Assembly: GCA_963628445.1 (NCBI GenBank)
Contig: CAVGEZ010000092.1
Coordinates: 10,634-74,633, forward strand
Source of the DNA: an uncultured Eubacteriales bacterium
GTDB taxonomy: Bacteria > Bacillota_I > Bacilli_A > Acholeplasmatales > Anaeroplasmataceae
DNA: 64,000 nucleotides
Reading direction: 5' to 3'
The position numbers and the translations under genes are program-made. Below are positions 5,094 through 57,267 of this stretch, piece after piece (positions within the stretch are counted from its first letter, which is position 1; every line of letters starts with the position of its first letter). The notes under the pieces are model-generated. The model was not told the origin of the DNA and ran no database searches. It saw nothing but the letters and a program-made list of their open reading frames with translations.

Positions 5094-5925
5094 TATACCT
5101 AAGTTTGGATTTGGTGGACTATTTGCGAAAGAATTATAGAAACAACTCCCCCAATTAGCTGGAAAAAGTCAGAAAGAAGTTATAGAAGTTTTTGGAAAGA
5201 TTATGAAAAAATTTGGAAATTCCAATGTAGCCAAACTTTTTAATAATGAAAATCTTACCCAAAGAGAGGCACAAAGATTAGCCAAGTCTGTTAATATTAT
5301 GAATGAAATGGTTAAGGATCCTAAAAGTGTGGATAATCTCATTAAGAATTTAGAGAATAATCCTAAACGTATGGAAAACCTAATTAAGAATTTAGCCAAA
5401 GCTTCTGAGAAAGAAACAACTGCAAATAAAGCTAAAGCTGTTGCTAAAAAAGCCTCTGATAAAGCTAAAGAAGTAGCTTCTGAGACTAAAGAAAAAGTTA
5501 CTTCTAAAATAAAAGAGGTTGCCGAAAAGACTAAAGACACTTTAACAAACAATTTCTTTACAAGACACCCCTATCTATCAGGAGGAATTGCTTTAGGTCT
5601 TAGTAATGGAACAGTTAGAGAAGGATTGGGAAACGTTGTTAAATATTGGACTACTCCTGTTAATAAATGGGATCAATTAAGTAGTCCTACTAATACTTCA
5701 AATTAGGAATTTTTGTTTATGAATGGTACTAAAATCCCTCTTAAAAGAAATGCAGATGGTTTCTTTGTGCCTATTACAGATGAGGACAAAACCTCTACTA
5801 ATAGTGGTGATGCAGCTATTGATGCAGCAGTAAATGCAGTTAACAATAGTCCAGCCTCCGATAATTCTTATATTCCTAATAGTGGCTTTAATGACTTATT
5901 TGAAGGAGATCAATGGTTACAATAA
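5077..5925 (+). CDS. virion protein, 282 aa, Lys/Glu-rich; N-terminal PKFGFGG motif
   Basis: ATG 5077 in frame 1 lies 42 codons upstream of the track start (5203). That upstream stretch is coding-like and has one in-frame TAG (5137). A second TAG at 5704 joins ORFs 5203-5706 and 5713-5925. The gene ends at TAA 5923-5925. Confidence 0.65.
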
Positions 5926-6491
5926 CAATTGGTAATAAAACTTACAAAGTAAAAGAAGCTAAAACTGACGAGGAAAAAACAAAAGGACTACAAGGTATTG
6001 ATCATTTACCCAAAGATGAAGGAATGTTATTTTACTTTGACCCAGATGAAAAAAATTCAATTTGGATGAAAGATACAAAAATTCCTTTAGATATAATCTT
6101 TATTAATGATGATCAAGAAGTTACCAAAGTTCACAGAGGTGAACCAAACGATGAATCTTTAATAACATCTCCAGAGACGGCTTATGTTCTAGAAGTCAAT
6201 GTTGATTCTGGAATAAAAAAGGGAGACGAATTAGAAATAGATGACGGTAAAGAACCTGTTATGAAAGTTTTAGCTTAGGATGGTAGTACTTAGATGTAGT
6301 TATGGGGAGGGGAAAGAATTGTTAGTAGAAGAGAAACTAAAATACTAATCAAGAAAGCTAAAGCAGCAGAAGCTGCAAAGGATACTCCTCAATTTGAAAA
6401 TAAATGTAGATCTCTTGGTAAATATATGTTTAAGGTTATTAAAGGTTAGGATACAAGACCTAATGAGTATGTAGAAAACAAAAATGCATAA
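5913..6491 (+). CDS. DUF192-like protein, 192 aa
   Basis: Track ORF 5913-6278 continues through 4 TAGs to TAA 6489-6491. The pattern GLQG...GMLFYF...IWMKDTKIPLDIIFI...YVLEV matches what I remember of DUF192/COG1430. Confidence 0.6.
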
Positions 6492-6570
6492 ATATCTTAA
6501 ATAATTTTCTTTTTTAGAAAATAAAGTTTATATTTACTTCAAACCGTGTTATTTTTAATTATATATAATT

Positions 6571-6891
6571 ATGAAAATTACTTACAAAAACGCAGCAAAA
6601 TTAACTAAGAAATTTTAGGCAGGAGGTCCTGTTGAACCAGCAGACCAACCTGTAGTAGAGCAGGCTCCTGAAGAAATGGAAGGTGCTCCTGAAGAACAAG
6701 CTCCTCAAGACCCTATGATGCAATTGGTGGAGATTTTTAGTCAAGGTTTGCAAAATCAAGACTGTCAAGCTCTTGCACAAGGTGCTCAGATGTTTTTACA
6801 ACTTGTTCAACAAGCACAGGAAGGTGCAGAACCACAAGGAGAACCCGTTTATCGAAAAGGTGGTAAGCTTGCTTATAAGATTAAGAAATAA
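6571..6891 (+). CDS. small Gln/Glu/Pro-rich virion-module protein, 106 aa
   Basis: ATG 6571 follows an 80-nt AT-rich spacer. There is one in-frame TAG (6616, inside KF-Q-AGG). The gene ends in a double TAA at 6889-6894 and is followed by a strong hairpin terminator. Confidence 0.7.
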
Positions 6892-6906
6892 TAAAACTCA
6901 TTTTAT

Positions 6907-6946
6907 GGAGGAAGTGGAGATAATCAACTCCTCTTCCTCTTTTTTG
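6907..6946 (+). terminator. rho-independent terminator
   Basis: Stem GAGGAAGTGGAG (6908-6919) pairs with CTCCTCTTCCTC (6928-6939) with one mismatch. The loop is 8 nt and is followed by TTTTTT (6940-6945). Confidence 0.75.
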
Positions 6947-6951
6947 TTTAT

Positions 6952-9852
6952 ATGGCAGAAGAAATACAACAATAGGTAGCAACACCTATACTATATAGCT
7001 TTTATGGAAAGCAATACGATTATAATGATCTAGCCAAAGCTGCAGATCAAGGACTATCAGATTATTTAAATACTTTAAAAAGAGGTTCTAAAGATTCCGA
7101 GGAATTTAGAACAGCTTATAATGATATTATGAGTGGTATTAAGGATGGAACTATTACTTTTGCTGATGGTTCATTCCATGATTCCCAAGGAAGATATACA
7201 AACTCAGATGAAAAATATAGAGATTATTATGGCTTGATAGCCAATTATATTTACAATTAGATGGGGAAGTCTAATGAGTATAAAGCCCCTGAGGATTCTA
7301 CAAAAATTAAATGGAGCAATAATAGTGTAAGAACAGCACTAATGAGACAACTATTTAATAGTGATACTGCTAGAGTACAAGATTTTCTTGATTTAGATGA
7401 AGAAAAAGATGGTGTTCGCGGTATTACTAATAGGGCTTCTTACTTATCTAATGCATTACAACGTGTTGCTGATAACTGGGATTCTACTTTCCAAGGCTAT
7501 CAAGATTCTGATAAAACTAGATACGTAGAATTACTTACTAAAGCTGCTCAAGCTTTACACGATGGTACTATTGATCCCGGAGATTATCTTGCATTAGGTA
7601 ATGCTATAGGAGGGGTTGATTTCCGTGAATTAATGGCTACAGGAACACCTAAACAGTAGATAGTAGAACAATAGCCTACTACTAAAACTACTGAACAAGT
7701 AGTAGAATAGCCTAAGTTAAAACACACTGTATTAACAGTTAAAAATCCAGTAGCAGCTTAGAAAGCAGCAGCACTTATGCAAAGAATACCTACACAAGGT
7801 TTGATTAATATTCTTAAAAATAGTTTTTACAATTAGAAATATACTTTTGGAAATGACTCAAGAATATATTCTATTTTTAAAACCAATAAGATTACAAATA
7901 GATTTGGAGTTACCGCTACTTTGAATGCTTTATATGCACAAGGAAAGCTTTAGCTCGCAGACCCCTCTAATCCTAATCTTTACTATATTCCAGGATTACG
8001 TACTAAACGAGGAACGGGTTGGGTTTGGGATAAAGCCAACAACACTGTTACAGAAATGATGTTGTAGAATATTCCGTATGCTGCACAACGTTTACAATAG
8101 GTAGCAGTAAATAAACGAGGAGGAATTTTGAAGGCTTCCTCTGGTGCTCAATTACCTTGGTATAGTGGTATAACTGATTATAATCCTACTGGATATAAAA
8201 CAGCCTACGGTTCTACTTTATATGGAATAAACAACAACGGTGTTTATGAAAGAGCTTACGATAATAGTGGTGCTGGTTCTATCGACTCTCGATATAAAAC
8301 TGATTCAGATTACAGCGATTACGGAGAAAAAGGAAAATGGTATGCTACAGAGGTAGAAAAATAGAATTATTTTAAAAATTTTACCAAAGCTCTCCAAGAT
8401 GCCGCTGATATATATCAAAACGCTTAGGATAAATCTACATTAAATGATAGTAACAACCTATTTTTAAGATGGGCACATGCTGTAGATAAAAGTTTGCCAT
8501 CTGGTTCTACTGCTACTTTCTTTGATAATAATGGTGCTTTAAGAACTTCTTGGGGAGCAACTAATAATGATTCTTATGGCAGAGCAGCTGGCCCAGCAAC
8601 TTCTAAATTATCTGATTACATTTATAAAGTAAGAAATGATTAGTTGCTGTCTAATAGACATAATGATCTACTCTTAGAAGGAAGTCGTTATTTCTATACC
8701 GATTCTTAGGGGAATAAACACTGGGTAGATCCAGAAGTTGCTAAGAAATACAGAATAGGTAACGGAGTAGAACGTATTGAAGGTAATACTCGGTGGACTG
8801 ACTTTGAAATTTTTGGAAACCAAACTCCACAAGGAGCTAGTACAAATTCTCCGCAAGGTGGTAATACAAGCTCTCTACAAGGTACTAATATAAACCCTAA
8901 AAAAGAAATTAATAAATAGAGTTGGATAGAAAAAAATGGAGAACGATTATTAGAAAAAGCAGCCCCTTTAGCATTAAGTACTACTAGGTTATTTGATTCT
9001 TTACACACTAATAATAAAGTAGCTGACATAATGAAAAAAGCTACTACTCCTGTTCTGAAAAATACTTATGAGTTATACTCTCCTGTTACTGGTGCGTTTA
9101 GTGAAATGCAGCTTAGGGAAAATCAAGCCGCTGATGTAAGAAGGTTTGGTAATCAACCTTATACTTCAGATGCTTCTTTAAATGCTGCAAGATCTCTTGA
9201 TGCAAATAGACAAGCAACAGACCTAGAACGCCAAGGCTTTATTGCAGATGATAATGAGATTAAGAGAACAAAAGCAGAAGCACTTGCTAGACAAGAAAAC
9301 AATATTGCTAGACGTACGGAAGTAGCTAATGTTAATAGAGCTGCAATTAATGCTTCTGACAAGGAAAAAGCTTATATAGAGGCAGAGAGACTTAATAAAA
9401 ACTGGCAATCTAGAGATAATTATCTAGGAGGAATTGAATCAGATATTAAACAAAGAATTGCTCAAAAAGAAGCAAATAGAGAGTATAATAGGAAACGTAA
9501 GCTTAGTATTGAAGAGTCTGGGTTTAGTGCTGATTTAGACTATGAAAAATAGGTATTATAGAATAAGTTCTTGGATTTGGAGAATGAGATTAAACTCGAT
9601 CTTTAGAACAAGATTCAAGAGTTTACTAAAGGTGAAGATAAGTATTATTATGACCAACCTTTCTATAAGGAAGCTATGGAAAAACTTAGATAGTTAAGAG
9701 ACCAAAAATTAAAGGAAGAACATGAGCTTACAAAAAGACATAGTATATTAACTTCTGATTATATAAAAGGTTTATATGATAAAATGGATAGTAGTTCTTT
9801 ATTTAGAAAAGGTGGTAGCCTTAAAATGATTAATAAAATATTAAATAAATGA
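6952..9852 (+). CDS. large virion/cargo protein, 966 aa; TAG read as sense
   Basis: ATG 6952. Frame 1 is open to TGA 9850-9852 with 19 in-frame TAGs. All gaps between track ORFs 7261-7659, 8128-8364 and 9031-9552 were checked and contain only TAG. Confidence 0.8.
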
Positions 9853-11744
9853 AGATAACACCTAAATTTCAATAGGGAGGGAATTTTTCCTCCCTTTTTA
9901 CTACTTATTAGGCTGTTAGGGTACCTCAAGTACAAGCTCCTATGAAAGTATCTGATGATCAATCTATTTCGGTTAAATCAAAAGCTGCAAAAGAATCAGA
10001 TTCAGATGATACTAAAGGAAAATTAACAGAGAAAGATCTATACACAATGATAAAAGATATAAATGGATTACCTAACGAGATGAAAAAGATTGTATCTAAT
10101 TTAAAAAACACTTTAGCATATTCTAATTTACAAGGGGTTGATACAGGAGAACTTTCTAATATTTACTTAAATAGTTTATATAAACTAAAAGTGGCTAATG
10201 ACAATAAAGCAAAATTCGATGAAGCTGTAAAAGCTTCCAAAACTAATGGTAGTTTAGGAGAAGTTGCAATATCTATGTCAGGTAAATTATTATCTACAGA
10301 TAAAGATGGTTAGATTTCTGAAGTCTCTGTAGAGCAGTATTATAGTAATCCTGAACAATACAATTTACTAACTAATTCTAATCTCGCTTGGTTACGTAAA
10401 TATTCTCCGAATATGGCTTTTTAGCAAAGTGATAGTGCTTTTGAGATTATCAATAATGGAATGGGTTATGAATCTTTTCAAGCTCTTCTAGATAAGTCAA
10501 AAACAGCTTTAGGTAACTATAAATACGAAGAAACAGGTGTAGTTGGTAAAGAAGCTTTACTTGGTTTGAAAACTTTACAGGGATTAAGTAAAGAATAGCA
10601 AGAGAAGTATATAAAAGGAGCTTTAGAAGGAAAATATAAATACACTAGTTCTACTGATTCTAACGCTCAATAGATACAAGCTTTAATTAATTATCTTACT
10701 GTAAGTTTACCTAAACGTGCTAAAGTCTGGGCTTCAATTAAAACAGGTATAGCCAATGAAAACAAAGCTACACAAGCTTTAGTAGGTCAATACTTGTCTG
10801 GACAACTTAAATCAGATTCTACATATACTGTAGATTATCTTGGTACTGAAGAAAAATTAAAGAAAGCTAGTAATAGCAGTAGTGGTGGAAGTGATACTAA
10901 AGAAGGTTTCTGGGCACAACTACAATCTGGAAAAGCAGGGGATGAATCAAAATCTACTATTCTTATTGGTAAAACTAACATGTCCGTTGATGGTAAGTAC
11001 TATGGAACAACTCCAGGGCTTGAAGAAAATAAATCACTCTCTAAATATATAGGAGATTCAAGAGTTGGTTATCTTATTTAGAATACTAATAATATAACTT
11101 TTGGAGACCAATCTATATCCCCTAGTGCATTTAAAGATATTATGGTAAATTCTGGAGGAGGTGCTATTACTGCAACATTACCTGTAACACCAGATGGTAA
11201 GGTAGACTTTAAAGTACTTGATACTTATTCCAAAGTTGTAAGTAAACTAAAAGCATCTGGAGTTTCTATAGGCACTAGAGAATTTGAATAGAAGAAAGCT
11301 GAAGTGCTAAAGCAAATTGGACTAGGATATTTAGTTGATGCAGCTAATGGGACTATTAATACAAGATATTTTAGATAGTTCTTAATATTAGAGGGAATTA
11401 CTAGCAATAAAGCATTTGGAGAAGTTGATGGTAAAAAGCAAGAGATTAATGGAGCTTCCGAGTTCATTAAAGATGTTTCAAGTGATGATGATTTATTTGG
11501 AACTGTGGAGAAAGCTCTCTCCGATAAAGATAATCCTTATAAATTAGATCATAATTGGATTTCCTTTAATAATAATAAATTATATAAAGGTAACATTTAT
11601 ATACCTCTTAATACTAATACTCTTAATGCAATGAACGCTGATAAAAATGATGTTAAAGCAGGAGAATCTTAGGAATTTGAGAAAAAGCAATAGGAGTGGA
11701 GTAAACGAGAAGAAATGTAGGATACTGGATCTGATAAATTATAA
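9849..11744 (+). CDS. virion/cargo protein, 631 aa (alternative start ATG 9942)
   Basis: ATG 9849 overlaps the TGA of the previous gene (ATGA). It gives MKITPKFQQGG..., which parallels MKITYKNAAKLTKKFQAGG of gene 6571-6891. Frame 3 is open to a double TAA at 11742-11747 with 12 TAGs. The start is uncertain because a terminator-like hairpin sits at 9874-9899. Confidence 0.6.
9874..9899 (+). terminator. terminator-like hairpin just after the 6952-9852 stop
   Basis: AGGGAGG (9874-9880) pairs with CCTCCCT (9889-9895). The loop is 8 nt and is followed by TTTTT. It overlaps the first codons of the 9849 start model, so it could be an attenuator or a coincidence of the GG codons. Confidence 0.35.
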
Positions 11745-11747
11745 TAA

Positions 11748-14700
11748 ATGAAATAGAATGATTGGTTAGTAGCATCTTTAAATAACCCTGATTTTACACC
11801 TTAGGATTTTAAGGATGTTTCTGGAATGACATTAGATAATACTCAATTTTTATCTAAAGATGAATATAAAAAGAGTTCTTTTGTAAGAAATTAGAAAGCT
11901 TCCTAGGATAATGAGGGTAAATTTTCAGATGATAAATTTGATGCTTATTATAAGAATATTGCAAGTACTTTTAATACGTTTAGTACAGAAGATGAAGTAG
12001 ATAATTATCAATATAGTGTCTGGGATATTAATAGACCTACAGAAGGGAAAATAAAGGATGTTAATTTTAACATTTCTTCTATTAGTAATCCAGAACATAT
12101 TAGGATAGGTGTAGAAGGTATAAATAAAATTTCTACATCTGATAAATCTCGTAGAGAATTAGCACAAAATAGCAAGATATATGACCCTGCTACTGGAACT
12201 TATTTAGACAAGTCCGTTAATGATATAACTTTATTCTCTAATCCTCTTGGTTATATTTCATCTCTTTTTGGAGAACCTTTAGTGTATGCTACTTATGATG
12301 AAGATACAGTAGAAATTGATCCTGTAACTGGAAATAAGGTAAAACATTTAAAAGGAGAATGGAAAATTAATGATGAGGGAGAGTATTACACGGAGAAAGC
12401 TAATGGAAGAAATCTACGAGATAAGCAAGTTGTGTCTGTTGAGGATTATTTGACTTCTGAGGATAGTGCTTTAAATAAGTATGACTTCATGGATTCTGAT
12501 GATTTAGAAAAATCAGTAGCAGGTACAGTAGCTAAAAATGTAGCTGCAGTTATACCTATGTTAATTCCTGGGGTTAATACTGTGTATTCAGGATTATTAG
12601 TAGGTAGAGAGCTTGCTAAATCTCTTCCTATGGCTTATGGTATGATGGCTTCTTTAACAGGAGATAATGTTGTAGATAATTAGCTTGCTAATACTATAGC
12701 TGCCTATGGTTAGAAATTTACAGGATCTACTTCGGACTATGCTCAAGAAAAAACTTTTAGCTTTGAGAATTTTGGTAATCTAATGTCTGACGTTGCTTTG
12801 CAATGGGGGCAATAGAAATTTATAGCTAATACTTATAATAAATTAAAAAGTGGTAGTAAAGATTCTTTAATAGCTGCTGAAATTAATGCACAAAAAGAGT
12901 ATTCTGATAAAGCTACTCAATATATTATTGATGCTGGTCAAGGAAAAATTAGTGCAGCTTAGTTAAATTCTTATGTAGGTATTACATAGCCCGGAGAAAT
13001 ACTAGAAGCTATATAGTCTGGAAGATGGGCTAACACAGCTTTAGGTAAAGCAGCTTTAAATAAATATTTACCAGCAGTCGAAAAAACCATACAAAATAGA
13101 AATAGAATGGCACAAGATTTATCTCTTGTGTATATGGCAATAGTTTCTAATACTGATGTATACGATTCTATTCTATAGAAAGGTGGAACACCTGAAGAAG
13201 CAGCAGCTTTAGCCTTTGGATCTACTCTCGGAATGTTTGGAGTAGATAGATATTTAGGTTTAGGCGAAATGTTCTTTTAGAAAGATGAAGCAAAACTTGC
13301 ATTACGTTAGGCAGCTAGAGAAAACGCTGAATTATATATGGCAGGAAAGAAGGCTGCCATAGATACTTCTACTAAAAAAGGAATTGTAGGAGCCATCTAG
13401 AAAGGTATTGACTTAGGAAAGAAAACTGTCGATTCTTTCAGTACTAAATATAAAGATGGTACGTTAGGATTAGTTGGTAAGGCTATCGGTGAAGGTGCCG
13501 AAGAAATGGCTGAAGAATTAGTAACCGACTTTACTAAAACTTTGGGTGAATTAGCAGGTAAACTTGGATATTTTTCTCAAACTGACTATGGAGCTTGGGA
13601 AAATGCTGGGGAACGTTACGCTATGTCGTTCTTAGGAGGTTTTGCCGGCGGTGCTATGTTTGGTGGAGTTGAGGCGTGGAATAATCGAAATAATTCTACC
13701 AAACAATTTCAAAATGAAATAACTTATCTGTTAAGACAAGGTAAAAAAGGAGAAATTCTTTCAGAGCTTAAAAAACTATAGAAGACAGGAAAATTAGGTA
13801 GCACTAATCTATCTTATGATAGTGTAACCAATTCTGATGGGACAGTTACTTAGCTTACTGCTAATGAAGACCATAAATCTTAGGCATAGTCTAATTATGA
13901 AGGTCTGTCTAACATTATAAATCAACTAGATTTTATTCTTAATGAAAATCAATTGAATCTTTCCGAAGATGAATTATTCGATAAAATGGTTCAAGGAGAG
14001 TATAGAGCAAATGCTCTTTCTGATTATCTTAAAGGAGAAGATCTGGAGACTGCAAAAAATATATCTTATATATCTAGATTTCAAGAGGATTTTTAGAATT
14101 TGTCTAATCAGATTATAAATATAGAACAACAGATAAATGAAAAAATTAGTAGTACTACTGATGAAGAAAAGAGAAAAAATCCTAAATATAAAGAGGATTT
14201 GGATAAACTTCAACAATAGAAGTAGGAACTTTTAAAAGAGAAAGATTATCTCTTTAGTGAGGGTTCTTTAGGCTACTTAGAAAAGACTTTATTTGCAATG
14301 GATACTAAATTAAGTAGTAATTTTCTAGCTCTTAATTTAAATCAATTTGCAAGAGATATTACAGGAAAATCTTTATCTCAATTAACATCAGCAGAATTAG
14401 AAACTGTACAAGATTTATTTAAAAAATCTTAGAATAATGCTAAAGATAATCTAGATAAGGGGTTCAAGCTTTATAAACAAATGGAAGCAGAACTTACACC
14501 CGAGTTATCTGGATTAAAAAATATTGATACTATTAAGAAAATTAGAGAATCAGATCCTGCAAACAAATTATTAAAAGAAACTGATAAACTAGATTCTGAA
14601 ACAGATGAGGAATATGAATCTCTAAGTGAGCCAAAAGAAGGGGAATCTCAAGAAGATTATAATAAAAGAGTTCAAGCACATAAAGATGCTGTAAAAAAGT

Positions 14701-17700
14701 ATAATCTTGATAATCAATTTAACTGGATTCAAGAATTTGCAAAAACTCCTATAACTACTACTGACTTTAGATATTTTGTATCTAAAGTAGGTGCATTGAG
14801 AAATGAATTAATTAAGTACTACCTTGATAATACAACTGTAAAACAATCTGACGGTACTACTAAACCTTTCTGGCAATTATCTGCTGTCTCAAGTAATGGA
14901 GAGCCAAAAGCAGAAGATATTTCTGATGTAGAACTTTTGAATAAAGATATATATGACTATATCCTTCAAATAGGAGTATAGGATATAGATTCTTTAAAGA
15001 ATACCATTAAAAAACGTATTAGGGAAACTGCTGAAGGAATGGTGGTAAGAAATTTGCCAAGTCTTAACACAGTTACTTATGATGGTATTATTCAGAGCGA
15101 ATTAAAAACACTTTCAGATCTTTCAGCAGAAGAAAAAGAAGCTCATTCTGTTCCAACAGATTATAAGTATGATAACAATGGGGTTATTACTTATAAAGAT
15201 TTAATAGCTTTTATGAAATATGAAGGATGGGGATCAGATGAAATGTGGGGCTACTTACAAGATAGCGGTGTTACTGCAGAGGATTTGGAAGCTTTTTAGA
15301 AATTTGTTGCAGAAGTTGCAATTAATCCTAATCTACTTCAAGAAGATATTGCAGACACTATTTTTGATGTTAGCGAAACAAAGAAGAATGAATTAGCTGA
15401 TAATCTCACTGATTAGGTTTCTGAAGCCTTCTTTAAGAATTTAGATTCTTTTGTAAAAGCTTTAAATGAGTCAAAACAATTAAAAACTTTAAATGCTCTT
15501 GAAAAAGCTACATTCGTAAAGAATCCTATAATTCCGCTCATAAATAAGATTTCATCCTTTACAAAGAAAGGAACAAATGTAGAATCTCTATTACAAGAAA
15601 TTTATGAAACATATCATAACTAGGAACAAAATTCTGATTTTTAGTTAACGGATTCATAGTTAGCTGACTTAAAGTAGATTCTACAAGATTTTAAAGTAGC
15701 ACAGGCATTTTTATATGGAGCTTCCGTTTCATCAGATAATACCCACCCTGTAGGACATAATAAAACTTTAAATGACTTTATAAATAATCATAAAGATGTA
15801 TTTCCTAATGCATAGGAATTAGTTGAAATATCTTCTGAAGATTTTAATATGCTTTTAGGAGAAATTGCTACTTATTCTAGGGAAATTAACTCTTGGATAG
15901 CTAAACATGAAGCAAACACTGCCTAGAGGGAAGTTAGGTTTATTAAAACAGATGAAGCTTTAATTAAAACTATTAATTAGTTTTTTAAATTAAATAGAAA
16001 TGCATTTAAAATTTCTCCTACATTAGACTTATTAGATGGCTATGAAGCTCAAACTTTAGATGACTCTCTCAGCACCATAATAGCTCTGCAAGAGATACTA
16101 CATAATAATTTCCTAAAATCTGGATTAAATATAGATGAAGTTTTAGATAAACTTTCTCCAGTTATATTTGATAGGAAGAGCGCGCTTAGCCAAGATAATC
16201 TAGTATTAGATGAAAATTTAACTTATAAAGATTTTTCTGCTTACGATAAATTTTAGTTAATAGTTAGTTCTTGTGCAGCTAGTTCTATCCAATATTATCA
16301 AAATTTAAGAGCTTTCTTAGAAGCTAATAATAATTTAGCACCTATATCTTCTTAGGAATTTCCATCTAAGTTGGTATATGCACAACAATCTAATGCAAAA
16401 TTGATTAACAAAGCTCTTGAATGGTTGGCAAAAGATTCTAAATTTGATGTTGCATATAATACTACTATATCTACTGGAGTAGGAGGTAGTGGAAAAACAT
16501 TTGCAGTAGCTAGATTAAATGTTGGAACTGGTAAAGATTGTTGGTTATCAGGGCCTGCACAAAGCCAAGTTGACAATTTAAATAAAAGTTTACCTGAGGG
16601 TGAAGGAAAAACTAAGCAAGACTTACTTAGTATTATCTTCGGAGGTACTGTGCCATCGGATTATTGGACAATAAGTAGAGAGGATGGATCAGCTTGTGCA
16701 AAATTAAAGAATGACTTAAATATTCAAAAAATAGACAATGCTCCAAAGAACATTGTCATTGATGAAATTACTCATTTTAGCACTCCTGAACTTTTAGCTA
16801 TTTCTAAGTTCTGCGAAATAAATAACATAAACCTAATAGTATTAGGAGACACTCATCAAAACGGGTATCTTGATAAAGATAATATTGGAAATATAGAGAA
16901 TAATTCTTTAATTGCTTGGAGAACTCCTTCCATGTATCTTTCTTTAAGAAATGGAAATGCTATTAAAGTAGCTAATCAATCACCTCTTATTAGTATGATT
17001 GATAAATTAGCTGTAGAAGATCCCTCTATATATGGACGTACTGTTTATGATGACTTATTTAAAAGCTTTAGGTTAAAATATTATAATAAAGAAACTTTCA
17101 ATGGTGATTTAATAACTGATTCAGTAGATGATTTGTTAAATAAAATTCCTAAAGATGCTACTATTGGATTTATTGGAGATAATACATCTCCTGAATATAA
17201 AAAATTAGTAGATGCTGGTTTTAAAGTAAGTGACCCTATAGCACCTCTTGATGTTTAGGGTAAAGAATTTGATTATGTTGTTGTAGACAAGAAATGGTCT
17301 TTAGATCCTATAGGAGATAATTGGAATCTAAACTATTATAATATATAGGAATTTAATAAAGACCTTTACACCATGATTACTAGAAGTACTCAAGGTACTA
17401 TATTAATAGATAATGGATTATCTAATATTATAGGTAAGAGTATTGAAGTAGAATCAAATGGAGTATATTCAGGAATAGAGAAATCTATAGAAAACTTTAG
17501 GAAGAAACGTATTCCAGAAATTGATAAGGCTTTAGAAGATACCAAAGATCTTTTATTATAGCAAAAACCAAAAAAAGAATCAGAACCTCAAGAAAAAATA
17601 GTAGTAGGCGGTACAGAAATTACCAATGATGAATTAAAAGAGGAGGGAGACTCTGTAAAACTTGGAGATAATACAAAAGAAATAGGGGATTCTAATAATG

Positions 17701-20576
17701 ATGAATTAGGAACTATAACAGATGCATCTTTGAATATATCTGCTTACAGTAATGTTAGTTATTCAGGAATAAATACTGCTAATAAAGAATGGGTAAATGA
17801 TACTAATAGTTATAGTGATTTAGGAATCTTTGTAAAGCCCGGAGAAACTGTAACTGAAAATAAAGTAGACTTAATGACTCAAGTTCTTACTTTAAAGAGT
17901 GCTATTATTTATGGTTCTACTTATGTTGAACTTCCAAACTATATCACTTAGCTATTTGATGAAGATGCTTTCAAGAATATTGAATATTATGTAAAAATTG
18001 AGGATATTTCTGATTCAAATCGTTTAATAGGATTAACTAAAGGTTTAGGTTTAGAAAATGAAAAACGAGGAATATAGAATAAAGTAATTAAAGTAGTTGC
18101 TAAACTGAAAGGTAGAGATGGAAATATATATTCAATCTCACTAGGAGGATTAAATAATCCTGAAACTTGGAAATAGAATGCTCCGAAAATAAAAGCAGCT
18201 ATTAAAGCTCGAATTGATAACGGTGATCCTAATTCAGAAAGTTTATAGAAAGAATATGATAGTTATGATGATAACATAGTTAAATATGAAACTAAGGTTT
18301 CTGAATGGGTTAAAAAGAATTAGGAGTTTAGAATAAATCCTCCTAAATTCTCATCTTATACAAGGCTTCAACCTTTAAAAGCTTCTTATAGACTAGAAGA
18401 TTCTGTATCTGATGATGCAATTTATAAAAGCTACGTTCCTTTGCAAGTAGAATCAGCAGTACATATAGTTCTTGGGGATATGCCCGGAGTTGATAAAAGT
18501 TTAATAGGAAAACCTGTTATGTTTGTATCAAGTAATTTCTTACTCAAACCTTCTCAATTAAAAGATGTCTATGTACAGCAAACCCAAAACCCAAATATGT
18601 CTAAACAGGTTAGGATGGTTGTTTTAGATAATGTAGGTGTTTCTTTTAAATCCCTATATCAAAAAAAGTGGTAGGAACTTTACAATATTACAGCAGGAAA
18701 TCTTAAATTTACAACACCTATGGAATTATAGCCTTTTGCTATTAGAATGTATAAGGCTATGTGGAACTATAGAGCAGGTTTGGCTCGATTCTTAGAACGA
18801 TACGAAAGCTTTTTAAAAGAAAATAATCTTAACGATGAAGATATAGTCAAACTTTGTCAAGATGATAATGCTGAATATAATAAACTAAAAGGAGATAAGA
18901 CAGAATTTAGTGAATCTGAATATCGTAAAGCTGTAGATTCTGAAAAAGCTAAAATATTATCTGTGCTATGGAAATTTAATGATAGTCTTGCCGACTATGT
19001 TAAAGAATTTAGACTCGGATATAGTAATGATCATGGAGTTTATTTACGTAAATTGACTAACATAGATACAAAATTCTATGACAATCCTAATAATGTAGTA
19101 GGTATTTATATTAACCCACAAATAGCTCGAGATTAGTATGAGTTAGTTAATAAACTTTTTGAGAATATAGTTGACAAGATTATTCCTACAGAAGGTACTA
19201 ATTTAAAATCCTATATCACTAATACTACTAATTTAGAAAAAGGATGGTTTACTAAAGTAGTTAAATAGAAAGAGATAGAATTAGAATTTATTGATGAGAA
19301 TAATTCTACAAAATCTTCTCTGCATTTAGATAATGTATCTTAGCTAACTACATTACCTTTGATTATTATTAAAGCTGCTAAATATTTAAATGTAGCTAAT
19401 CATGTAGGTTCTTAGGACTATATAGATTTCTTACATCAATAGGCTGAAGATGGGCATACACCTTTTAGTATAAAATATCAAGATAAAGAACTAGATTGGT
19501 TTGATGTTTTAAGTTCTTTGGATAATCAAGTAGGAACTGATCCTGAGAATGATTATGTAGAAGGAATCCCAGGAATTTTACCGTATGATGCTGAATCTGG
19601 CACTGGAACTTTAGATACTAGATTGGATGATTTCTGGAACTTAATGTTTCATGGAACTGTTTCTACCCCTGTAGAAAACGATTTTACTAGAGACTTTATA
19701 AGAGCAACTAGTGCTCAGTTTAAATATGGTATTTTCTCAGATCCTATTGTTGCTTATAATAAAAAGGGTTCCAAAGAAAATGTTGATGTTACTCTTACTA
19801 GTAGAAAATTATTTAGAGTGAATGCAGCTGCTGCAGGTACAGTTATGTAGGTTGATATTTCTCCTTATAAAGAAACTAAGACAAAATCTAAATCTTAGGA
19901 AGTAAAGACAGAATCATTAGAAAATCCAGTGCAACAAACGGCTAATATTATTACTCCTATACTTTCTAAATTAGGTATAACTGTAAAAGCTACTAATTTT
20001 AAGAGTTTAGATAATTATATAAATAAAGTTAATGTAAAAATAAAAAATGTGTTAGAAGATTTTATAAAAGGAAATACTTCTAACAATTTTGAAGATTTAA
20101 TATTAAAAATAGATAACGAAGGTAATGCAGAGTATTTAAAAGATAGAGCAGAATTTAAAGGCAAAACTTTAAAAAATATAGAAGTTATTCCAGATGGTAA
20201 AGCTTTAACTTTTACAGATTCGGAAGGGAAAGAATATATTTATCATATCTGGTATTCTGATAATGAAATCGATGTTAAAGAGATGAATAAAGAAATTGTT
20301 CATGAACAAAATATGACTCCAGAGCAAGTTATAACAACTATAAGTAATCTTATAGAACCATTCTTTAAGTCTATAGAGGATGGTGAAGAAGAATTTAAGG
20401 ATATTATAAAGAAAGTTGCGGAACGCTCCAAAGGTGATATTTCTTGGGACACATTTACTAAGATTATTAATAATGTAGTATTTACGAAAGATTTCAAAGA
20501 TACTTATAGAGATGAAAACGGCTTTGATGAGCTAGAAAAGAATATAAAGAATTTCTTAAACTCATGTCCAATTTAA
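11748..20576 (+). CDS. giant virion/cargo protein, 2942 aa, with embedded SF1 helicase-like P-loop NTPase domain
   Basis: ATG 11748 follows a double TAA. Frame 3 is open to TAA 20574-20576 with about 51 in-frame TAGs. All 12 gaps between track ORFs were checked codon by codon and contain no TAA/TGA. SF1 motifs:
- Walker A GVGGSGKT (16476-16499)
- Walker B VIDEITH (about 16752-16775)
- LGDTHQNG
- DV-Q(TAG)-GKEFDYVVV (17250-17288)
- YTMITRSTQG (motif VI). Confidence 0.8.
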
Positions 20577-20577
20577 T

Positions 20578-23500
20578 ATGAAAAAATGTAAAGTTTCAAA
20601 CTACAGTAAAGATAAGTATTCCAATCTTATTGATTTTGCTAAAATAAAAGCAAGTACTGTTGAAGACTTAATAGAAGAAATCTATGGAGTACTGAAGGGA
20701 TTACCCTTCAGTACAAACATAGAAGATTCTTTAGATACAGACACCTATGCAGAAAGTATTAATGACTTATGTGAGTAGGTGAAAAAAGAATTAGCTAAAA
20801 CAGAACTAGCAAGTACCTTATCTCCAGCAGATAAAGGAAAAATTACTAGATCTTTAAAAGAAAAATTATTACCAACCCCTTTAACTAAAGTTGAACAACA
20901 AATTTCTGCTATTATAAAAGGGACTGATTTAGTTAGAGAAGAAGATGTCCAAGCTATACGGTATCATGGTATTATTAGCGACTTTTACGGTTCTTCTAAT
21001 CCCGGATTAGACAACTTGAGATTATCCTTATTTGAAAGTGAGTTAGGTAATATAGCTATATATAATAAAAAAATTGTAGAAACAGATAAAGAATTAAACC
21101 AAGGTATTATGGATTATCTCGAAAAGCAATACCAAATAATCAGAAAGTATTTGACTGATTACCACTTTTCAGATGATTCTAATTTTCCAAAAGTTTTATT
21201 TACCTCTTGGTCTGAAAATAGAAAAATTAAAGTAAAAACACATGATTACTTTAATACTATAACAGCAATGTATAATGTTATACAACATCTTAAAGAAGAT
21301 AATTCTTTTTAGGATTACTTGGAAGATGGTTGGAATAAAACAATGGATAATTCTACCGAAAGTTCTAAAGGATTAGATATTTATAATGCCATAAGTGCTT
21401 ATATTAATTTAGTTTATTTTGATGCTACTTTAAAACAAGTTTTTTCTAAATTTATAAATATTAATAATCAATAGGAAGTTATTCAGATAGCTGTAGATGA
21501 ATTTGATCATGCTACTGAGATTTATAAATATACTAGAAGTGTTGGAAATGCTAATGCTCGTAAGACTTGGGGGGATGATATTTCTAACTCTCTTGAAGAA
21601 ATGAGTAAATTTCATTAGGTATTGATTAGACGTATTCCTTTGTATGATTATAAAACTGAAGAAAAAGAATATGGTACTCTGGAACCTAAAGATGTAGTAG
21701 GAGCCTTTACTTTACTTAAAGTTGCAGGAGCATTAGTAAAAGATGCTGAATTTAGAACTGCTATAGAAAATCTAAATAATGATAATTCTAGAAAGAAAGG
21801 AGATCTTTTTACGATATTTCATAAATTATTTGTTGATAAGAATTAGAACATAATACATGAGTTAAATAATCGTGGGTTAGATCAAAACTATCTTAATATT
21901 ATTTATTCTGTATATCAAACAGTTTTTTCAAATTCAAAAAATTCTTGGAAATCTATTGAAAATAATTTTTTAAAAGAAAAGGGTATTCATTCTCGTTATA
22001 ATATGGCTGAAACAATACTTAATGTTATTAAATCTAATACTATATTAAGTTATTTGTAGACTACCTATAATTATGATAATGAATAGATGGTTACTGCTAT
22101 TAAAGAAAGATATTCTTATTCTAAAACTAAATTTGATATAATTCATGACATAGATGATAATACTATTCAGAGAGAAGATACCAAAGAACTTCTTACTGCC
22201 TTTCCTTTAAATAAGTTAAATGATGGAAAGAGTTATAGTATTAAAATAGGGGAAAATGTCTATAATATCGTAGTAACTGGGGATAATGTAAATATACTTT
22301 CTAAGAAAAATTCTGCTTCTAATTTTGATATTAGTGAATTAGCCAAAATCAAAGATGTAGAATGTAAAACTAATTCACAACGTGAGCATCTTTTAAGTGG
22401 TCAAAATTTAACTGATTCTGAAAAACAATTCATGGAAGTTTTGTCTTTCATAGACACAATGTTAAATACTACTTTTAGTGTAAGCAGTCAATCTTTGGAA
22501 GAATTTCATTTATCCAGAAAAAATAGACCTAATTTCTTCCACAACCTCTTTATGTCTGCTGCAAGAGCTTTAGTTATATAGGATATTTATAAAGATTTCA
22601 GAACAGCTAAAAAAGAAAATGGTGATACTTATGCTAAGAATGAACTTAAAGATTATTTAAATGATTCTAATAAATTCCCGGGGATTGTAGGAACTAATAA
22701 AGATTACTACTATTTTATTAAAACTATAGAGGGAAATCAATTAAAAACATTAGATAATAATGAATAGTGGGTTATTGATTTAGCTAAAGTTCGTGCCATT
22801 TTAAATAGAGATACTGTTAATTCCACCATTTCAGATTTAACAGGTAATAAAAACCCTAATTTTAGTTTAGCTTACTTAAGTGGTGATTTAAAAGGGTAGC
22901 TATTAGATTCTAAAAAGGATGCTTCTGCTACTTCTTTTTTACTCTTTTCTGATAATAGAAGTGCTATTATAGAGTCTCCTGTAGATTTGGATGTAGCTGT
23001 TAAAAATAGGAAGTCTAAGCAAGTTAAATCATTTACAGAAACAGAGTTATTTTATCACGCTTTGGTGAATAAGTTCCTAATTCCTTTCTCAGAAGATGGA
23101 ACAATTTTTATTCAATCAACTACTCAATCGGATAAAACTAAATTTATTCCTTATCATATTAATTTAAATGATATTGTAATTAATGGCGTTTCTTTAAGTT
23201 AGATAGTAAAAACTTATGGTTTTGAAAATTCTATAATAAATGCTATTCAATCCACTATAGGTCAAGCCTATAAACATGTATATAATTCTGTTTTAGAAGA
23301 TTATTAGAAACTTTTTCCTAGTATAAAAACTATAGACGATGTTAATCAACTCTTTAAAGGTAAACCTGTAAAGTTAGCAGATTCTGAGGATGTTTATATT
23401 ATAAGCGATGAAAAGTCTTTAATGAATGCGGTTCGTGCTTATAATAAAAATCATCCAAGAATTACTATTTATAAAGATTTACATTATAGACAAATTAAAG

Positions 23501-26500
23501 GAGGAAAGTTAGCATTTAATGAATTACTATATGAGTTTTCTCAAAATTTATATAATGATACTAATTATTTAAAACAGAGATTAGATTTTGAACGTAAAAG
23601 GTTCTTAAAAGATTTAATAAAGAGACGAATGAATATTAAAGCAACTCCTCAGATTAAGAATATATTAGTTTAGTCTTTTGGTGTTGATCTTAGTCGATGG
23701 GTTCAGACAATAGGGAAAGAAGAATATGTTGTTCTAGCAAAATCAAATGGATAGAATGTTTTCACTTTAAAAGATATTGGTGAGGATATTACTTTGAATC
23801 CGTTTCTTAATGCCTATTTCCTTATAGATAATTTAGTGGGAAATAATTTACGTTTTTCTGGAACAGGTTCTGAAATTAATCATAAAATTAAAGCATTAGG
23901 AGGTTTAGATTTAAAGTCTAAAATTAATGCAAATATAGAAGATTTGTTACTTCTTAAACCAAATTACATAGAAGATAATTTAACTTTCTATGACCTAGAC
24001 CAAATGATTAAAAAAGGTAGAAATATTCCTGAGTTGTCTGAAACAGTAAACGAGTTAAAGAAAGTATATTCCAAACAAATCCTTTTGATGGAGAATTTAG
24101 GACAAGGAGCACAATTCAAAAGAAATGTAATAATGTCTGCAACAATGCAGAGAATTTGTCCTAGTTTAGAGGGAATATCTGAAATGTTAAATGTTGCATG
24201 TATTTCTGATGTTACTTATAATATCTTTAATTTTTCTGGAAAAACAGATAAGTTAAAAGTTCATGATGGCTCTGCTTTAATAAGTCCTTTAGAGTCTATA
24301 TTAGAAAATAAATCATTAGGTTCAAATGAAGTAGGGTCTGTTAAGAAACCTATTCAACACTCATTTAATAATAAGTATATGACTGCTACTTTATTAAAGT
24401 ATGCAACAGATACTATTACAAACCAATGGATGAGGCAATCTGTAGGTAATGATTTGAATAATAATCAGCATGCTATTAATCTCCTAAACCTCTTTAAGAA
24501 AATGCATAATAAAAGATGGCATAAACTAGGAGAAAATGGAGAAATGCTTGATGATTGGGTTGATGGAGAAATAGATCTTATAAATGGATGTGCATATAAA
24601 AAAGACGAAGAACATGAAATTCTTTTTAAAGATGACATTCTTCAAGGTCATGATTTGTTTTATAGAAAAGGAGGAAAACATTATAAGATAGAAAATTTTG
24701 GGAGAGAAAACGGAATCTACTACACTGTTGAAAGCGAAGTTGACTTTATGGGAAATGCTCTATCGGGTGAACGTGGTAGGCAACATAAAGTATATCATTA
24801 CTTTGACAGTCAATCAAATCACATTCCTTCTTAGTTCTTATTAGAGGGTACTACTAACCATACTATAGATTCTCTTTATGAATTACATACAGCACTAGGA
24901 GGAATATGGTCTGAAGCTAAAAATGAAGATCGTTTAAATTATTCAGAATCTTCAAATATAGTTGTAGTTAATTTTATTAATTATGTAGCTACTTTAAAAC
25001 AAGGAGCAGACCCAACAGATTATAGCATAAATAGTTATGATTAGCCTCTAAAAAGAGCTATGATACATGTAGTAGCTAATGATTCAGCTGTTAAAAATGG
25101 TGTAGGAAATATAAATGATGATTCAGTTTGGTATAATGATTCAGACTTAGAATATATGCAAATAGATTCTAAAATGTACGGTATACAACAAGATTCTGAC
25201 CACACTGCTGATGAAGCTCATATGACAGAATTTTCTTAGGTTATATCCTCTCTAGATGCAGGTGGGTATTTACACGATTATGTTTCTCAAATATATCAAT
25301 AGCTTGGATAGGTTGCCATAGATTTATCTTCTGTTGAATTAGATGCAGTAGATAAATTCAGAGAAAGTGGTAATCTTTCTGATTTATATGATATTGTAGG
25401 ACGTACTATAATTGCTAATATTAAATCTGGTAGAAATTAGGTAGGTTTAGCTCAAGCTATAATTAATAATATTAAGAGTAAATTTAATCTTAATATAGAT
25501 CATAGTTTGGATGATTTAAAGATACCTTTTAGTGATCCTAACATATATAGTAATATTCTTTCTTCTTTTGTTTCTAACATAAACAAGAAATCTATAAAAA
25601 GATAGTTTCCTGGACTTGGAACTGTTATGGTTCCTTCATTTAATATCTCTATGATTTATGATATTAATGGGATTACATATCAATTTGAGGATATTATTAA
25701 AGAAGCTCAAGAGAATGGAATTACATCTACAGAAATAGATAATACAAAATATAATTAGGATATTGCAAAACAATATTTGAATAAGTTACAAGAAAAAGAA
25801 CAAGTAACTACAGATATTAATGAATTTTATCCTACTGATAATGTTTTAGTTACTATTTTAGGTACAAAAAATGGAGAAACAAAAGAATATAAGGAACATG
25901 TATCTTTAAATGGTATAGAAGACTATTATAACTTTACAGACAATCCTGTAGAATATCTTACTAAAAAAGGGTATTCCAATATTACTAATTTAACATATTA
26001 GAAAGACCTTACAGTACCAAGAAACTTAGCCCCTGCTCGAATTACTTGGGATTACATTGATTCTGATGGTAAAGAGCATCATTGTAACATATTTAATCAT
26101 TGGAGAGTACGAGGTCAGATTAGAGAATTTTTACAAATTCAAGCATCTAAAGGAAGTAAAGAAGAAAAGAATCTCTCTAGAAAACTCGCTAGTAAAAAAT
26201 GGGATGTAGACCAAGCTTTCAAAGATTTAAAGAAGGGTATTTATGAGCCATATCAAGGAGCATCTCCAGTGCAGATAACAAATTTAAAGAATGATTCTGC
26301 TGAAATAATAATGTCCAATATCTATGCTTCTAAATTTAATATAAAGAAGGGGGATAGTCTAGTAGACGTATTAAAACAGGGAGAAGCATACTTTTCAGTT
26401 CCTGAAGTTAATTTAGAATCGGATAAGTATGATATGGTGTTTACTAAAGGCGATGGTTCTCATGATTATATTACTTTCAAACCGTTATCAAAAAATGATG

Positions 26501-29500
26501 ATAATTGTAGTACCTTTTATCAAAGTTGGGAGAATATAAACAAAGTTTCATATGAAGCTCATGAGAATGTTTAGCCGGATTCTCCACAAGTTATTAATAA
26601 AATATATGCAGTAACTTCTGACAATGTCAGATTATTTGAAATAGGTAGAGAAATAGTAAATGATGATGTAGTTTGGGATAGTGCTAAGAAAGCTTTTATA
26701 TAGGATGGTAAAAAAGTAAGCAATCAAAGAAACTTCAGACGTGATGGAGATAGAGTTTTAGAATATATTGAATTTGTTTCAAAACACCAAGTATCTGAAA
26801 CAAGAGGGAATGGTTCAGTTATATCTTATAATTTATATAATATAAATAAGAATAATTTAAGAAGATGCTTTGAAAAAGAAATCTATCCCGAAAAACAACT
26901 TCATTATAAAAACTCAAAAGGAATAGATATTACATTAACACAAGATCAAAAATATGATCAATCTATAAATTATTATATAAGTAATTTACTTGCAAATATA
27001 TATAAAGCGCGGAACTATAGTGGTATTCAGTTTAATAAATCTATGAGTGATACTTCTGGTAGAATAGTAAAGCGTGTTCTATATAATTTTGCAGAGAATC
27101 TTAAATATAATAAACCTTTATATGATTATCTTAATAATGTACGAAAAATTATAGATAATATAGAGGGTGAGTTTAAAATACCTACAAGAGCGTTAAAGAA
27201 AGCAGAAAGAACTTATAGTACAACAATTTCTCATAAACAGTATGTTTCTTTCTAGAAATCTCTTTATTTTACTGCAGCTCGTATTCCAGCCCAAACGCTA
27301 CAATCTTTTATGAAATAGAAGTGTGTAGGTTTTACTGGAACAGATACTGGACAATGTTTTGTATCAGCATGGTAGACATTCTTGTAGGGAAGTGACTATA
27401 AACAGAATTGTAGTCTTTAAATCTCGTGAACTGCGGGGAACTTCTTAGAGCCTATATGTACTAATTTAGAGTAGAAATATCTCTAAAGGCAGTAACTAAC
27501 TATTGCTGACATAGTAAAAAGCATGTAGGATTGGACAATCCACGGCCAAGCATTCTAGATAAATATTTACAGGAAGGACTTGTTAATTGACAAAATTTCT
27601 TGTATATTTACAAGAATGAGGGTTCACAGACTATCCCGAGAGGGAGTAGGAACTTTCGTTTAAATAAACGAAGTATGACAAAAAGAAAATTTATTCGACT
27701 TAGTAAAGAACAGAAGAGTTTATTAATAGCTCTCTTAATAGGAGGTGGAACTATATCTAGTAATTACGTGTTTAAACTATCCCACTCTGCTCTACAAAGA
27801 GAGTACTTAGAGTGGAAAGTGAAATTATTAAACACCTATGGAATTAAAAATAATGGAGTAAGGGAATACATATCCAAATGCGGATATAATACTGGAAGAG
27901 AGGTGTTGTACTCACAAATGTCTCTTATTCCAACTATAAAAGCACTGCGTAGGTCTGTTTACGTTCCAAAGAAAACTATTACTAGAAAACTACTAGAATG
28001 GTTAAATCCTCTAGGTTTAGCCCTCTGGTATATGGATGACAGGTGTATTAATGTTAATACATCGAAGCAAAGAAGCTCTATTCAACATACTATTAAGATA
28101 GCTACATGTGTTGATGAAGCTACTATTAAAACAATAATAAGTTACTTTGATGAAGTATGGGATATACACTTCAGACCTTTTAAAGAAGGAAAAGGTACTT
28201 ATTCTATAGCGTCTAGTTCAGAGCTAGATTGCGAAAAGTTTATTAAAATAGTAAAGCCATATATAGAGCAAGTTCCCTCTTTTCTATATAAAATAAGAAG
28301 AGATTTAACTAAGGAGGAATTTATAAAATTACAGGAGTCAGGTTCCGAAGTGCGAGACATTGTATTTTAATATAATGATGATATAGTCGGACTTATACTG
28401 AAAAGTATAAGATAAATCGGATATAGATAAAGCATATATAATGGGTTTATGCTTTGATGAGAACGGATTATATGAAGGATGGAGTAATCTATTCAATTAT
28501 GATTCTATAGAAAATCTTAATGCGTCAGAATATTTACCAATGCCTCAGAAAATAAGGCATATAGTAATAAATGATGTTAATTCTAGAAGATAGTCCTTTG
28601 TTCAACAATTAGTAAATACTACTGATGAACAAGAGTAGGCAGAGATCTAGAATAAATTAAGATAGTTAGATAATATTGTAGACATAGATCCTTGGATTAA
28701 TAGAATCTATTCAGAAGAAAATACAGCTAAAAGAATACAACTAATGGCTGACTTTATTAATGAGATAAACAAGCATGCTTATGAAACTAATGAAGGTAAA
28801 TCAGTTAATTTAACTTATACAGATTCTCGTGGAAAACAATTAATTAATGATTTAAATACCCATGAATTTACTGAAATACCAACTAGTTTATCTTAGGATA
28901 TTAGTAAGAATTTTATTTCTAGTCATATTCAAAACACTGTTCAAGATTTAATTAATATGACTAGAGCATATTCACCTATTGAAATATCTGATTTTGGTGA
29001 TGCAGCTAGCTTAAGTGATAAGAGTACTGCAGAGCAAGAATTGACTCTTTTAAACCCAGCTACAAAATATATTATGTAGTATATTAATATGGTTGGTAAG
29101 AATGTAATTGGTATTGCTGCAAATGGTGAAAAAGCTTCTTTTATGTGGCATTTCTATCTTAATGATTTAGTAAGATATGGTGATGCAGAAAAACGTAAAT
29201 ATGGACATTTTAAATTCTTAACTAAAAGAATTATAGGCAGAGCTAATAATGCAATAGAAGAAAAAACAATAACTGGATTACCTGACATTAATTTTGAAAA
29301 TATAGATCCTCGTATTCTAGGAGAGTTTGGGTCTAGATTAACAGGTAATTTATATGTAGACTTGATGATAAGTTAGGTCTTGTCTGCGGCTACTGATAAT
29401 GCAAAAGAACTTATACTTGGAAAAGTAAATGCAGGTAATAAATTAGCAAAAATGTATTTATTTATGATTACTCTTGGTATGAACATAAATGACATTGTTA

Positions 29501-33656: not shown

Positions 33657-33657
33657 T

Positions 33658-41541: not shown

Positions 41542-41543
41542 AA

Positions 41544-41678: not shown

Positions 41679-41682
41679 CAAT

Positions 41683-42169: not shown

Positions 42170-42171
42170 AT

Positions 42172-42202: not shown

Positions 42203-42251
42203 GAAAACCAATAAAAAACACCTCATTAGTGCTTAATAGCCTAAAATGGTG

Positions 42252-47362: not shown

Positions 47363-47365
47363 ATT

Positions 47366-57230: not shown

Positions 57231-57267
57231 ATCCTAGTATATATTTTTTTTACTCAATTCTAAATTT

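Follow-up and report, generated by a model that had tools for sequence, protein, structure and literature searches.

The window analysed here is a stretch of 64,000 nucleotides from the 2.2-Mb assembly GCA_963628445.1 of an uncultured Eubacteriales bacterium (contig CAVGEZ010000092.1, termed C92 below), and it holds two arms of a phage genome, each of which is open under its own genetic code. We will focus on the late arm, and particularly on a TAG codon that lies in frame within a helicase-like motif of a protein of 2942 amino acids (aa), in order to examine which residue is encoded by TAG in this phage and which tRNA may read it. The main features are the following:

1..38193, plus strand: late (virion) arm, open only with TAG as a sense codon; 12 abutting genes, 200 sense TAGs
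11748..20576, plus strand: late-arm gene of the 2942-aa protein, with 51 sense TAGs, 72 CAA and 7 CAG; terminator TAA
17256..17258, plus strand: TAG at residue 1837 of this protein, in frame; taken to be the invariant motif V Gln of the helicase domain
39026..64000, minus strand: early (replication) arm, intact in the standard code; PolA and NrdD annotated

TAG is a sense codon in the late arm

Around the codon of interest, positions 17250-17288 read gat gtt TAG ggt aaa gaa ttt gat tat gtt gtt gta gac, which translates as D-V-[TAG]-G-K-E-F-D-Y-V-V-V-D, so that both the sequence and the frame agree with the first-pass annotation, which had described an in-frame TAG within D-V-[TAG]-G-K-E-F-D-Y-V of the 2942-aa protein. 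The open reading frame (ORF) at 11748-20576 extends over 8.8 kb with no in-frame TAA and no in-frame TGA, the full-length homologues of its product are about 2950 aa long, and the only domain recognisable in it is a superfamily 1 (SF1) core at residues ~1540-1910.

The same holds at the scale of the arm, in which TAG is a sense codon. Its genes terminate in TAA (nine) or TGA (three) and never in TAG, and its codons comprise 200 TAG, 310 CAA and 43 CAG, TAG thus making up 36% of the codons assigned to Gln. ORFs of 150 aa or more cover 0.49 of C92 with TAG as a stop and 0.85 with TAG as sense, and within the whole assembly this TAG signature is found only on C92 and on two other contigs, C94 and C95. 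One could argue that TAG is still a stop here and that the long frame is made up of pseudogene fragments, arises from low-level read-through or reflects an artefact of assembly, since translation with table 11 splits the late arm into about 60 short fragments; this is extremely improbable considering that the 200 TAGs are accompanied by no TAA or TGA at all inside the 12 abutting long frames, and that conservation runs past the TAGs in dozens of relatives, including motif VI of the helicase domain and 1100 further residues. Two release-factor (PCRF-domain) genes lie on the bacterial contigs of the bin (none was found on the recoded contigs), and two early-arm ORFs do terminate in TAG, each with a TAA as backup, 5 and 11 codons further on. 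These are the other points in favour of a stop, against which one has to set the alternation of CAA or CAG with TAG at the same sites among relatives and a structural model of the domain that forms one confident fold across the TAG.

The SF1 domain and the place of the TAG within it

The TAG at 17256-17258 lies in a domain for which the following features can be listed (invariance refers, for motifs I, II, V and VI, to alignments of 17 and of 28 sequences):

16365..17477, plus strand: SF1 helicase-like NTPase core with two RecA-like domains (Pfam AAA_30, AF2 model, Foldseek)
16476..16499, plus strand: motif I / Walker A, GVGGSGKT; G, G, G and K invariant
16752..16775, plus strand: motif II / Walker B, IVIDEITH; D1672 and E1673 invariant
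16839..16865, plus strand: motif III, VLGDTHQNG; G1700, D1701 and Q1704 invariant
17244..17288, plus strand: motif V, PLDV-Q(TAG)-GKEFDYVVVD; Q1837, G1838 and E1840 invariant
17364..17399, plus strand: motif VI, LYTMITRSTQGT (LYTMITRS); Y1874, T1875 and R1879 invariant

Along the frame, motifs I, II and III lie upstream of the TAG and motif VI downstream. The larger alignment was made of 28 sequences taken from about 120 full-length homologues and 80 related viral loci with DNA, and the residues that are invariant in it (GxxGxGK, Q, DE, D..Q, R, G, Q-G-x-E and Y-T...R) are those of the SF1 motif series. Pfam AAA_30 matches the window domain with 28.7-29.6 bits, above the cut-off of 27 (28.7 with the TAG masked as X), and the relatives are matched by AAA_30 in 28 cases out of 28, by Viral_helicase1 in 25 of 28 and by UvrD_C_2 in 21 of 28 (E <= 0.01, best 6.8e-7). 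Only once the TAG is replaced by Q does UvrD_C_2 align to the window protein from V-Q onwards. Two simpler searches were set aside: in a single-sequence Pfam scan with the TAG as X, UvrD_C_2 reaches motif VI only, so that the TAG column cannot be placed, and a phmmer search of the single domain against the PDB gave a spurious match to Paratox as its sole result.

When the 28-sequence profile is compared with solved structures, HelD, Upf1/NAM7, Pif1, RecD and IGHMBP2 come first, and the profile aligns evQGqEFdYvvvDk with afQGREKDYIILSC of Upf1 in the same columns. The C-terminal half alone is collinear with Upf1 across both motif V and motif VI, the Upf1 counterpart of the latter being NVALTRAR. 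The AlphaFold (AF2) model of the domain (pLDDT 90.6, pTM 0.88) is one confident unit that spans the TAG, and in a Foldseek search of the PDB, SF1 helicases account for 50 of the 50 matches listed (best E 7.5e-11; 115 matches at E <= 0.001), the top ones being nsP2 helicase, SLFN11, RecD/RecD2, Dna2, Pif1, Dda and nsp13, at a probability of 1.00 each. The modelled domain around the TAG thus has the SF1 helicase fold, and the AAA_30 score together with the all-SF1 list of top structural matches bears out what the first-pass annotation had proposed. Its further proposal, that the TAG falls in the Q-G column of motif V, is likewise borne out by the profile alignment with QGREKD of Upf1, collinear with motif VI, which places codon 17256-17258 in that column.

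The window domain resembles the SF1B, Upf1-like and viral helicases (RecD/RecD2, Dda, Pif1, Upf1, alphavirus nsP2h and nidovirus nsp13) in its two RecA-like domains and in the succession of Walker A, DE, GD..Q, Q-G-x-E and Y/V-T..R. It departs from the solved SF1 helicases in an identity of just 11-15% and TM-scores of about 0.4-0.5, and from that branch in an insert of ~25 residues between motifs V and VI and in being embedded in a protein of 2942 aa, in which helicase activity is a prediction only. Motif V of the SF1A helicases (UvrD/Rep/PcrA) is Lys-Gly-x-Glu (KGLEF/W). This means that motif V alone leaves Lys open, because SF1A helicases have Lys there. To call the Gln invariant in SF1 was therefore too broad, although Q is found in all of the family proteins, and the motif V codon, which had been offered as evidence for the identity of the residue, does indicate Gln but is not decisive alone.

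Which residue is encoded: comparison of codons

The motif V column holds Q in 120 of 120 database homologues. As a Q in the databases may itself result from translation with TAG as Gln, the DNA codons of the relatives were compared. Among 69 related loci, the column holds CAA 27 times, CAG 27 times, TAG 14 times and AGA once. Most of the related loci are TAG-recoded, with 16-119 TAGs in the gene, while 11 have no TAG and use the standard code; the standard-code loci read SVQGSEF at motif V. The giant gene of C94, which belongs to a second related phage of the bin and is 53% identical at the aa level, also has a sense Gln codon at this column.

The other TAGs of the gene were scored against the codon columns of 27 non-redundant relatives, and three of them, beside the one at residue 1837, fall in Gln columns:

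12813..12815, plus strand: TAG at residue 356, Gln column otherwise invariant; relatives CAA 14, CAG 5, TAG 8
13881..13883, plus strand: TAG at residue 712, Gln column; relatives CAA 14, CAG 1, TAG 11, GTT 1
16353..16355, plus strand: TAG at residue 1536, invariant Gln column; relatives CAA 14, CAG 3, TAG 10

At residues 356, 712, 1536 and 1837, the sense codons of the relatives are all CAA or CAG, bar one GTT. Every window TAG that lies in a column conserved at 90% or more falls on Gln (4 of 4), conserved Gln columns being 10 of 198, which gives a rough chance probability of (10/198)^4 = 6.5e-6. Column-profile log-odds for 47 of the 51 TAGs amount to +29.5 nats for Gln, -19.1 for Glu, -26.1 for Asn and -32.4 for Lys, in a test whose control returned the true residue for 15 codons out of 15 (narrowly for CAG). 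All 10 of the 10 conserved Gln columns carry a TAG in some relative, as do 4 of the 12 Lys columns and 0-1 columns of any other residue. Judged from these aligned codons, the comparative data at TAG are accounted for by Gln, and the first-pass assignment of TAG to Gln holds, with CAA or CAG in 54 of the 69 loci at the motif V column and with the likelihoods of Gln and Glu lying on opposite sides of zero. It is this family-level codon comparison, and not the motif alone, that settles the identity of the residue.

Another Gln-dominated column is struck by a TAG in a short late-arm protein:

6616..6618, plus strand: TAG at the third position of KF-Q-x-GG, the N-terminal motif of a 106-aa protein, Gln-dominated column

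Here positions 6610-6627 read aaa ttt TAG gca gga ggt, and positions 9864-9881 read aaa ttt caa TAG gga ggg. Both TAGs had been presented in the first-pass annotation as standing where paralogous motifs use CAA. They are both present, and for the first one the comparison stands, since position 3 of the motif is CAA in 16, CAG in 6, TAG in 6 and another codon in 5 of 33 copies from relatives; the one at 9873 lies in a variable column and is uninformative on the residue. The N-terminal K-F-Q-x-G-G itself recurs at window positions 5101-5118, 6610-6627 and 9864-9881, 3-21 residues past the start Met. The motif, carried by a protein of ~100 aa and one of ~630 aa, is conserved in most relatives (orthologues in loci L001-L080), and it could serve as a signal for the processing or packaging of virion proteins.

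The suppressor tRNA and its extra arm

No tRNA was found in the window or anywhere on C92. A candidate to decode the late-arm TAGs is encoded elsewhere in the bin:

C95:24100-24190 (= L081:10100-10190), outside the window: tRNA of 91 nt with anticodon CUA, Rfam tRNA 43.4 bits

This tRNA has A1-U72, G2-C71, A73 and a variable arm of ~21 nt. The tRNA(CUA) family to which it belongs occurs in 76 viral loci; its members mostly measure 71-75 nt, 12 copies having 88-91 nt. The closest co-resident isoacceptor of the family is the phage tRNA-Gln(UUG), with a median identity of 0.81 and up to 0.94 over the acceptor and D arms, the next ordinary isoacceptors reaching at most 0.75. Acceptor and D arms were used instead of whole-length pairwise identity, which is uninformative, all values lying at 70-79%. 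Among the CCA-bearing tRNAs of the bin bacterium, a weak first acceptor pair (A-U/U-A) is found only in tRNA-Gln and tRNA-Trp. An ancestry from tRNA-Ser, tRNA-Leu or tRNA-Tyr, which the long variable arm might evoke, was ruled out by near-identical family members of 73 nt without the arm. The C95 tRNA shares with the Escherichia coli supE-type amber suppressors and the phage Sup-CTA tRNAs the CUA anticodon, a weak first acceptor pair (A1-U72 in this tRNA, U1-A72 in most other members) together with G2-C71, and the phage tRNA-Gln(UUG) as nearest relative; unlike them, it has an A73 discriminator and a variable-loop insert of ~16 nt that forms a hairpin. A tRNA(CUA) of Gln-like type is thus present in the bin, on a phage contig complementary to C92, and this contig presumably belongs to exactly the phage of the window.

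The anticodon could also call pyrrolysine to mind, a reading that we consider vanishingly improbable. Its sole evidence is the 'tRNA-Pyl' label of ARAGORN, which is automatic for any CUA anticodon, while no match to PylS was found anywhere in the 98.4%-complete assembly and the TAG columns are Gln columns. The variable loop of tRNA-Pyl has 3 nt, as compared with the ~21-nt arm of the C95 tRNA.

The extra arm deserves closer description. Of the 85 tRNA(CUA) copies predicted across the viral loci that were scanned, 12 are of the long form; they correspond to 8 distinct sequences, that of the window phage included, the other seven coming from IMG/VR. Long suppressors differ from short ones by the insert of ~16 nt in the variable loop; this insert folds into a short helix, two pairs of which have changed on both sides in a compensatory way. 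Seven of the eight distinct sequences have U-CUG at the tip of the hairpin; the remaining one, for which no hairpin is predicted, has U-UUG at this place, CUG and UUG both being Gln anticodons. The arm tip of the C95 tRNA, C-U-CUG-A-A, reproduces the anticodon loop of tRNA-Gln(CUG) letter for letter, and the U-CUG 4-mer occurs in only 2 of 49 ordinary class II tRNAs of the same loci. No publication describing this extra arm was found in a literature search. It is conceivable, though we would sooner bet against it, that the CUG-tipped hairpin secures the Gln identity of the suppressor by offering the glutaminyl-tRNA synthetase (GlnRS) the G36 determinant that the CUA anticodon lacks.

Other tRNAs and signals were seen around these suppressors. 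A contig of 3.6 kb, C109, carries six tRNAs without encoded CCA (Arg, Asn, Gln-UUG, Glu, Thr and Leu), and its tRNA-Gln(UUG) has its first 26 nt in common with some members of the suppressor family; no protein match was found between C109 and a complete 174-kb relative of the window phage. Five UUA-anticodon (ochre-reading) tRNAs are predicted in the phage tRNA arrays beside CUA suppressors in loci L094-L173. On C95, a strong hairpin with a T-run behind it (L081:10472-10531) lies downstream of the suppressor tRNA at a distance of about 280 nt and is probably an intrinsic terminator; the Rfam mir-1289 match at this place is spurious (27.8 bits for a threshold of 66).

Points against glutamine and other residues

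Several observations weigh against the reading of the TAGs as Gln and of the codon at 17256-17258 as the motif V residue. UvrD_C_2 (PF13538) scores only 19.8 bits on the window protein, below its gathering cut-off of 27.4, and the alignments of motif V with Upf1 carry weak E-values when taken one by one. Over the 33 TAG columns that can be aligned to the lone standard-code relative (26% identity), Gln scores -93.2 and Glu -91.3. The TAGs at residues 702 (13851-13853) and 2463 (19134-19136) lie in aromatic Y/W/F columns. The A73 and the 21-nt extra arm are not known as typical features of tRNA-Gln. Finally, the suppressor tRNA lies on C95, in a bin that holds two related phages, and we infer its assignment to the phage of the window.

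Some of these points could be taken to mean that TAG is a sense codon for another standard residue, namely Lys, Glu or Tyr, which we hold to be very unlikely. For Lys, the argument is the K-G-x-E of SF1A helicases at motif V; none of the three residues is ever found at this column among the 120 proteins and 69 loci, and the four conserved columns struck by window TAGs are all Gln. For Glu, it is the slightly better fit to the lone standard-code relative. That likelihood left Gln and Glu inseparable, and the pooled counts were non-independent, so that it was replaced by the non-redundant column-profile test; the separation of Gln from Glu is owed to the sense codons of the recoded relatives and to the pooled data, and not to the lone relative, and in the calibrated likelihood Gln leads Glu, Asn and Lys by at least 48 nats. 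For Tyr, one can invoke the neighbouring codons TAT and TAC, the two TAGs in Tyr-rich columns at residues 702 and 2463, and the long variable arm of the suppressor, which resembles that of Ser, Leu and bacterial Tyr tRNAs; this arm was inserted into class I tRNAs of a Gln-like family and does not belong to a Ser, Leu or Tyr body, and its tip carries a Gln anticodon. The codons of the relatives are TAT, TGG or TTY at residue 702 and TAT or TAC at residue 2463. These two TAGs are possibly TAT>TAG changes, perhaps recent, that are tolerated as substitutions of Tyr by Gln.

The phage, its relatives and its host

C92 is collinear with the 77-173 kb region of the complete 174-kb relative, and C95, a TAG-recoded contig of 31 kb that carries the terminase gene TerL, maps to the 36-55 kb region, which is absent from C92. 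C94 (33 kb) is collinear with C92:20.8-50.4 kb. Because it duplicates this part of C92 at about 68% nucleotide identity, the bin must contain two related phages, and a single genome made of C92, C94 and C95 was ruled out for the same reason. TerL belongs to the terminase family phrog_6681 of PHROGs (E 5e-62), and it matches 116 GenBank phage records, mainly from Crassvirales, Flavobacterium FpV phages and uncultured or faecal phages, with an identity of 22-28% (49% for one record). Against GenBank phages, the region gives no blastn match, and the 2942-aa protein gives, by tblastn, two unannotated records and nothing else; PHROGs has no family for 7 of the 8 late-arm proteins scanned, the genes at 20578-27420 and 28441-31230 being among those without a match. 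The genomes of the relatives measure 150-190 kb. Taken from sequence comparison, the phage would fit a deep-branching crAss-like lineage (Crassvirales) and the code-switching Zeta group of 145-192 kb (PMC7886860).

The bacterium of the bin is a Bacillota of Bacilli type with a low GC content. Its GlnRS (C31:5996-7567) is 96% and 84% identical to those of gut metagenome-assembled genomes (MAGs) and about 70% identical to those of Erysipelotrichaceae and Anaeroplasma MAGs. The hosts of the TerL relatives are all Bacteroidota; the Bacillota of the bin is probably not the host of the phage, the contigs of which were probably co-binned by composition. Because of this mismatch between the Bacillota of the bin and the Bacteroidota infected by the TerL relatives, the GlnRS of the bin bacterium was dropped as the charging enzyme.

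Ten of the relatives (L032, L042, L045, L046, L053, L055, L060, L074, L075 and L077) have an orthologue of the giant gene with about 57-59 in-frame TAA and 5-8 TGA when only the frame at which the match starts is read, a pattern that points to a shift of frame or an insertion (intron or intein) and not to a different code.

Interpretation and connection to known phage biology

We are highly confident that the window belongs to a crAss-like phage in which TAG encodes Gln in the late arm while the early arm follows the standard code, and that the TAG at 17256-17258 is the motif V Gln of an SF1-type NTPase domain. Most likely, the late-arm TAGs would be decoded by a phage-encoded amber suppressor tRNA(CUA) derived from tRNA-Gln, which the GlnRS of the host would charge with Gln. 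Since the early genes need no suppression and the late genes are impossible without it, the code switch may double as a timing gate for the late genes.

All of this has precedents. The reassignment of TAG to Gln in the late genes of crAss-like phages, and code switching at short distances in the Zeta group, with its genomes of 145-192 kb, have been described (Yutin et al. 2021, PMC7886860), Gln at TAG has been proven in such phages by proteomics (Peters et al. 2022, PMC9523058), and a phage suppressor charged by the host GlnRS, together with a recoding that gates late-gene translation, has been put forward (Borges et al., 10.1101/2021.08.26.457843). The phage of the window shows no essential difference from the code-15 crAss-like phages and is one more genome of the kind: it shares with them in-frame TAGs confined to the late or structural arm, a standard replication arm, TAG aligned to Gln and a suppressor tRNA(CUA), and its relatives, as in the Zeta group, switch between TAG recoding and the standard code at short distance and have genomes of 150-190 kb. 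Gln at the TAGs of the window is deduced here from sequence, and the peptide proof comes from other crAss-like phages (PMC9523058). Thus, the reading of TAG as Gln is correct but already published, and it adds nothing to the biology reported in Yutin 2021, Borges 2022 and Peters 2022.

The practical consequence is that the annotation of this phage requires TAG to be read as Gln, for with table 11 the 2942-aa protein and the helicase domain that it bears vanish, and the case illustrates that one well-placed codon in a catalytic motif can point to the reassigned residue. The sole element of real discovery value is the CUG-tipped arm of the suppressor, as it bears on how suppressors get charged, a question that was left open by Borges et al.

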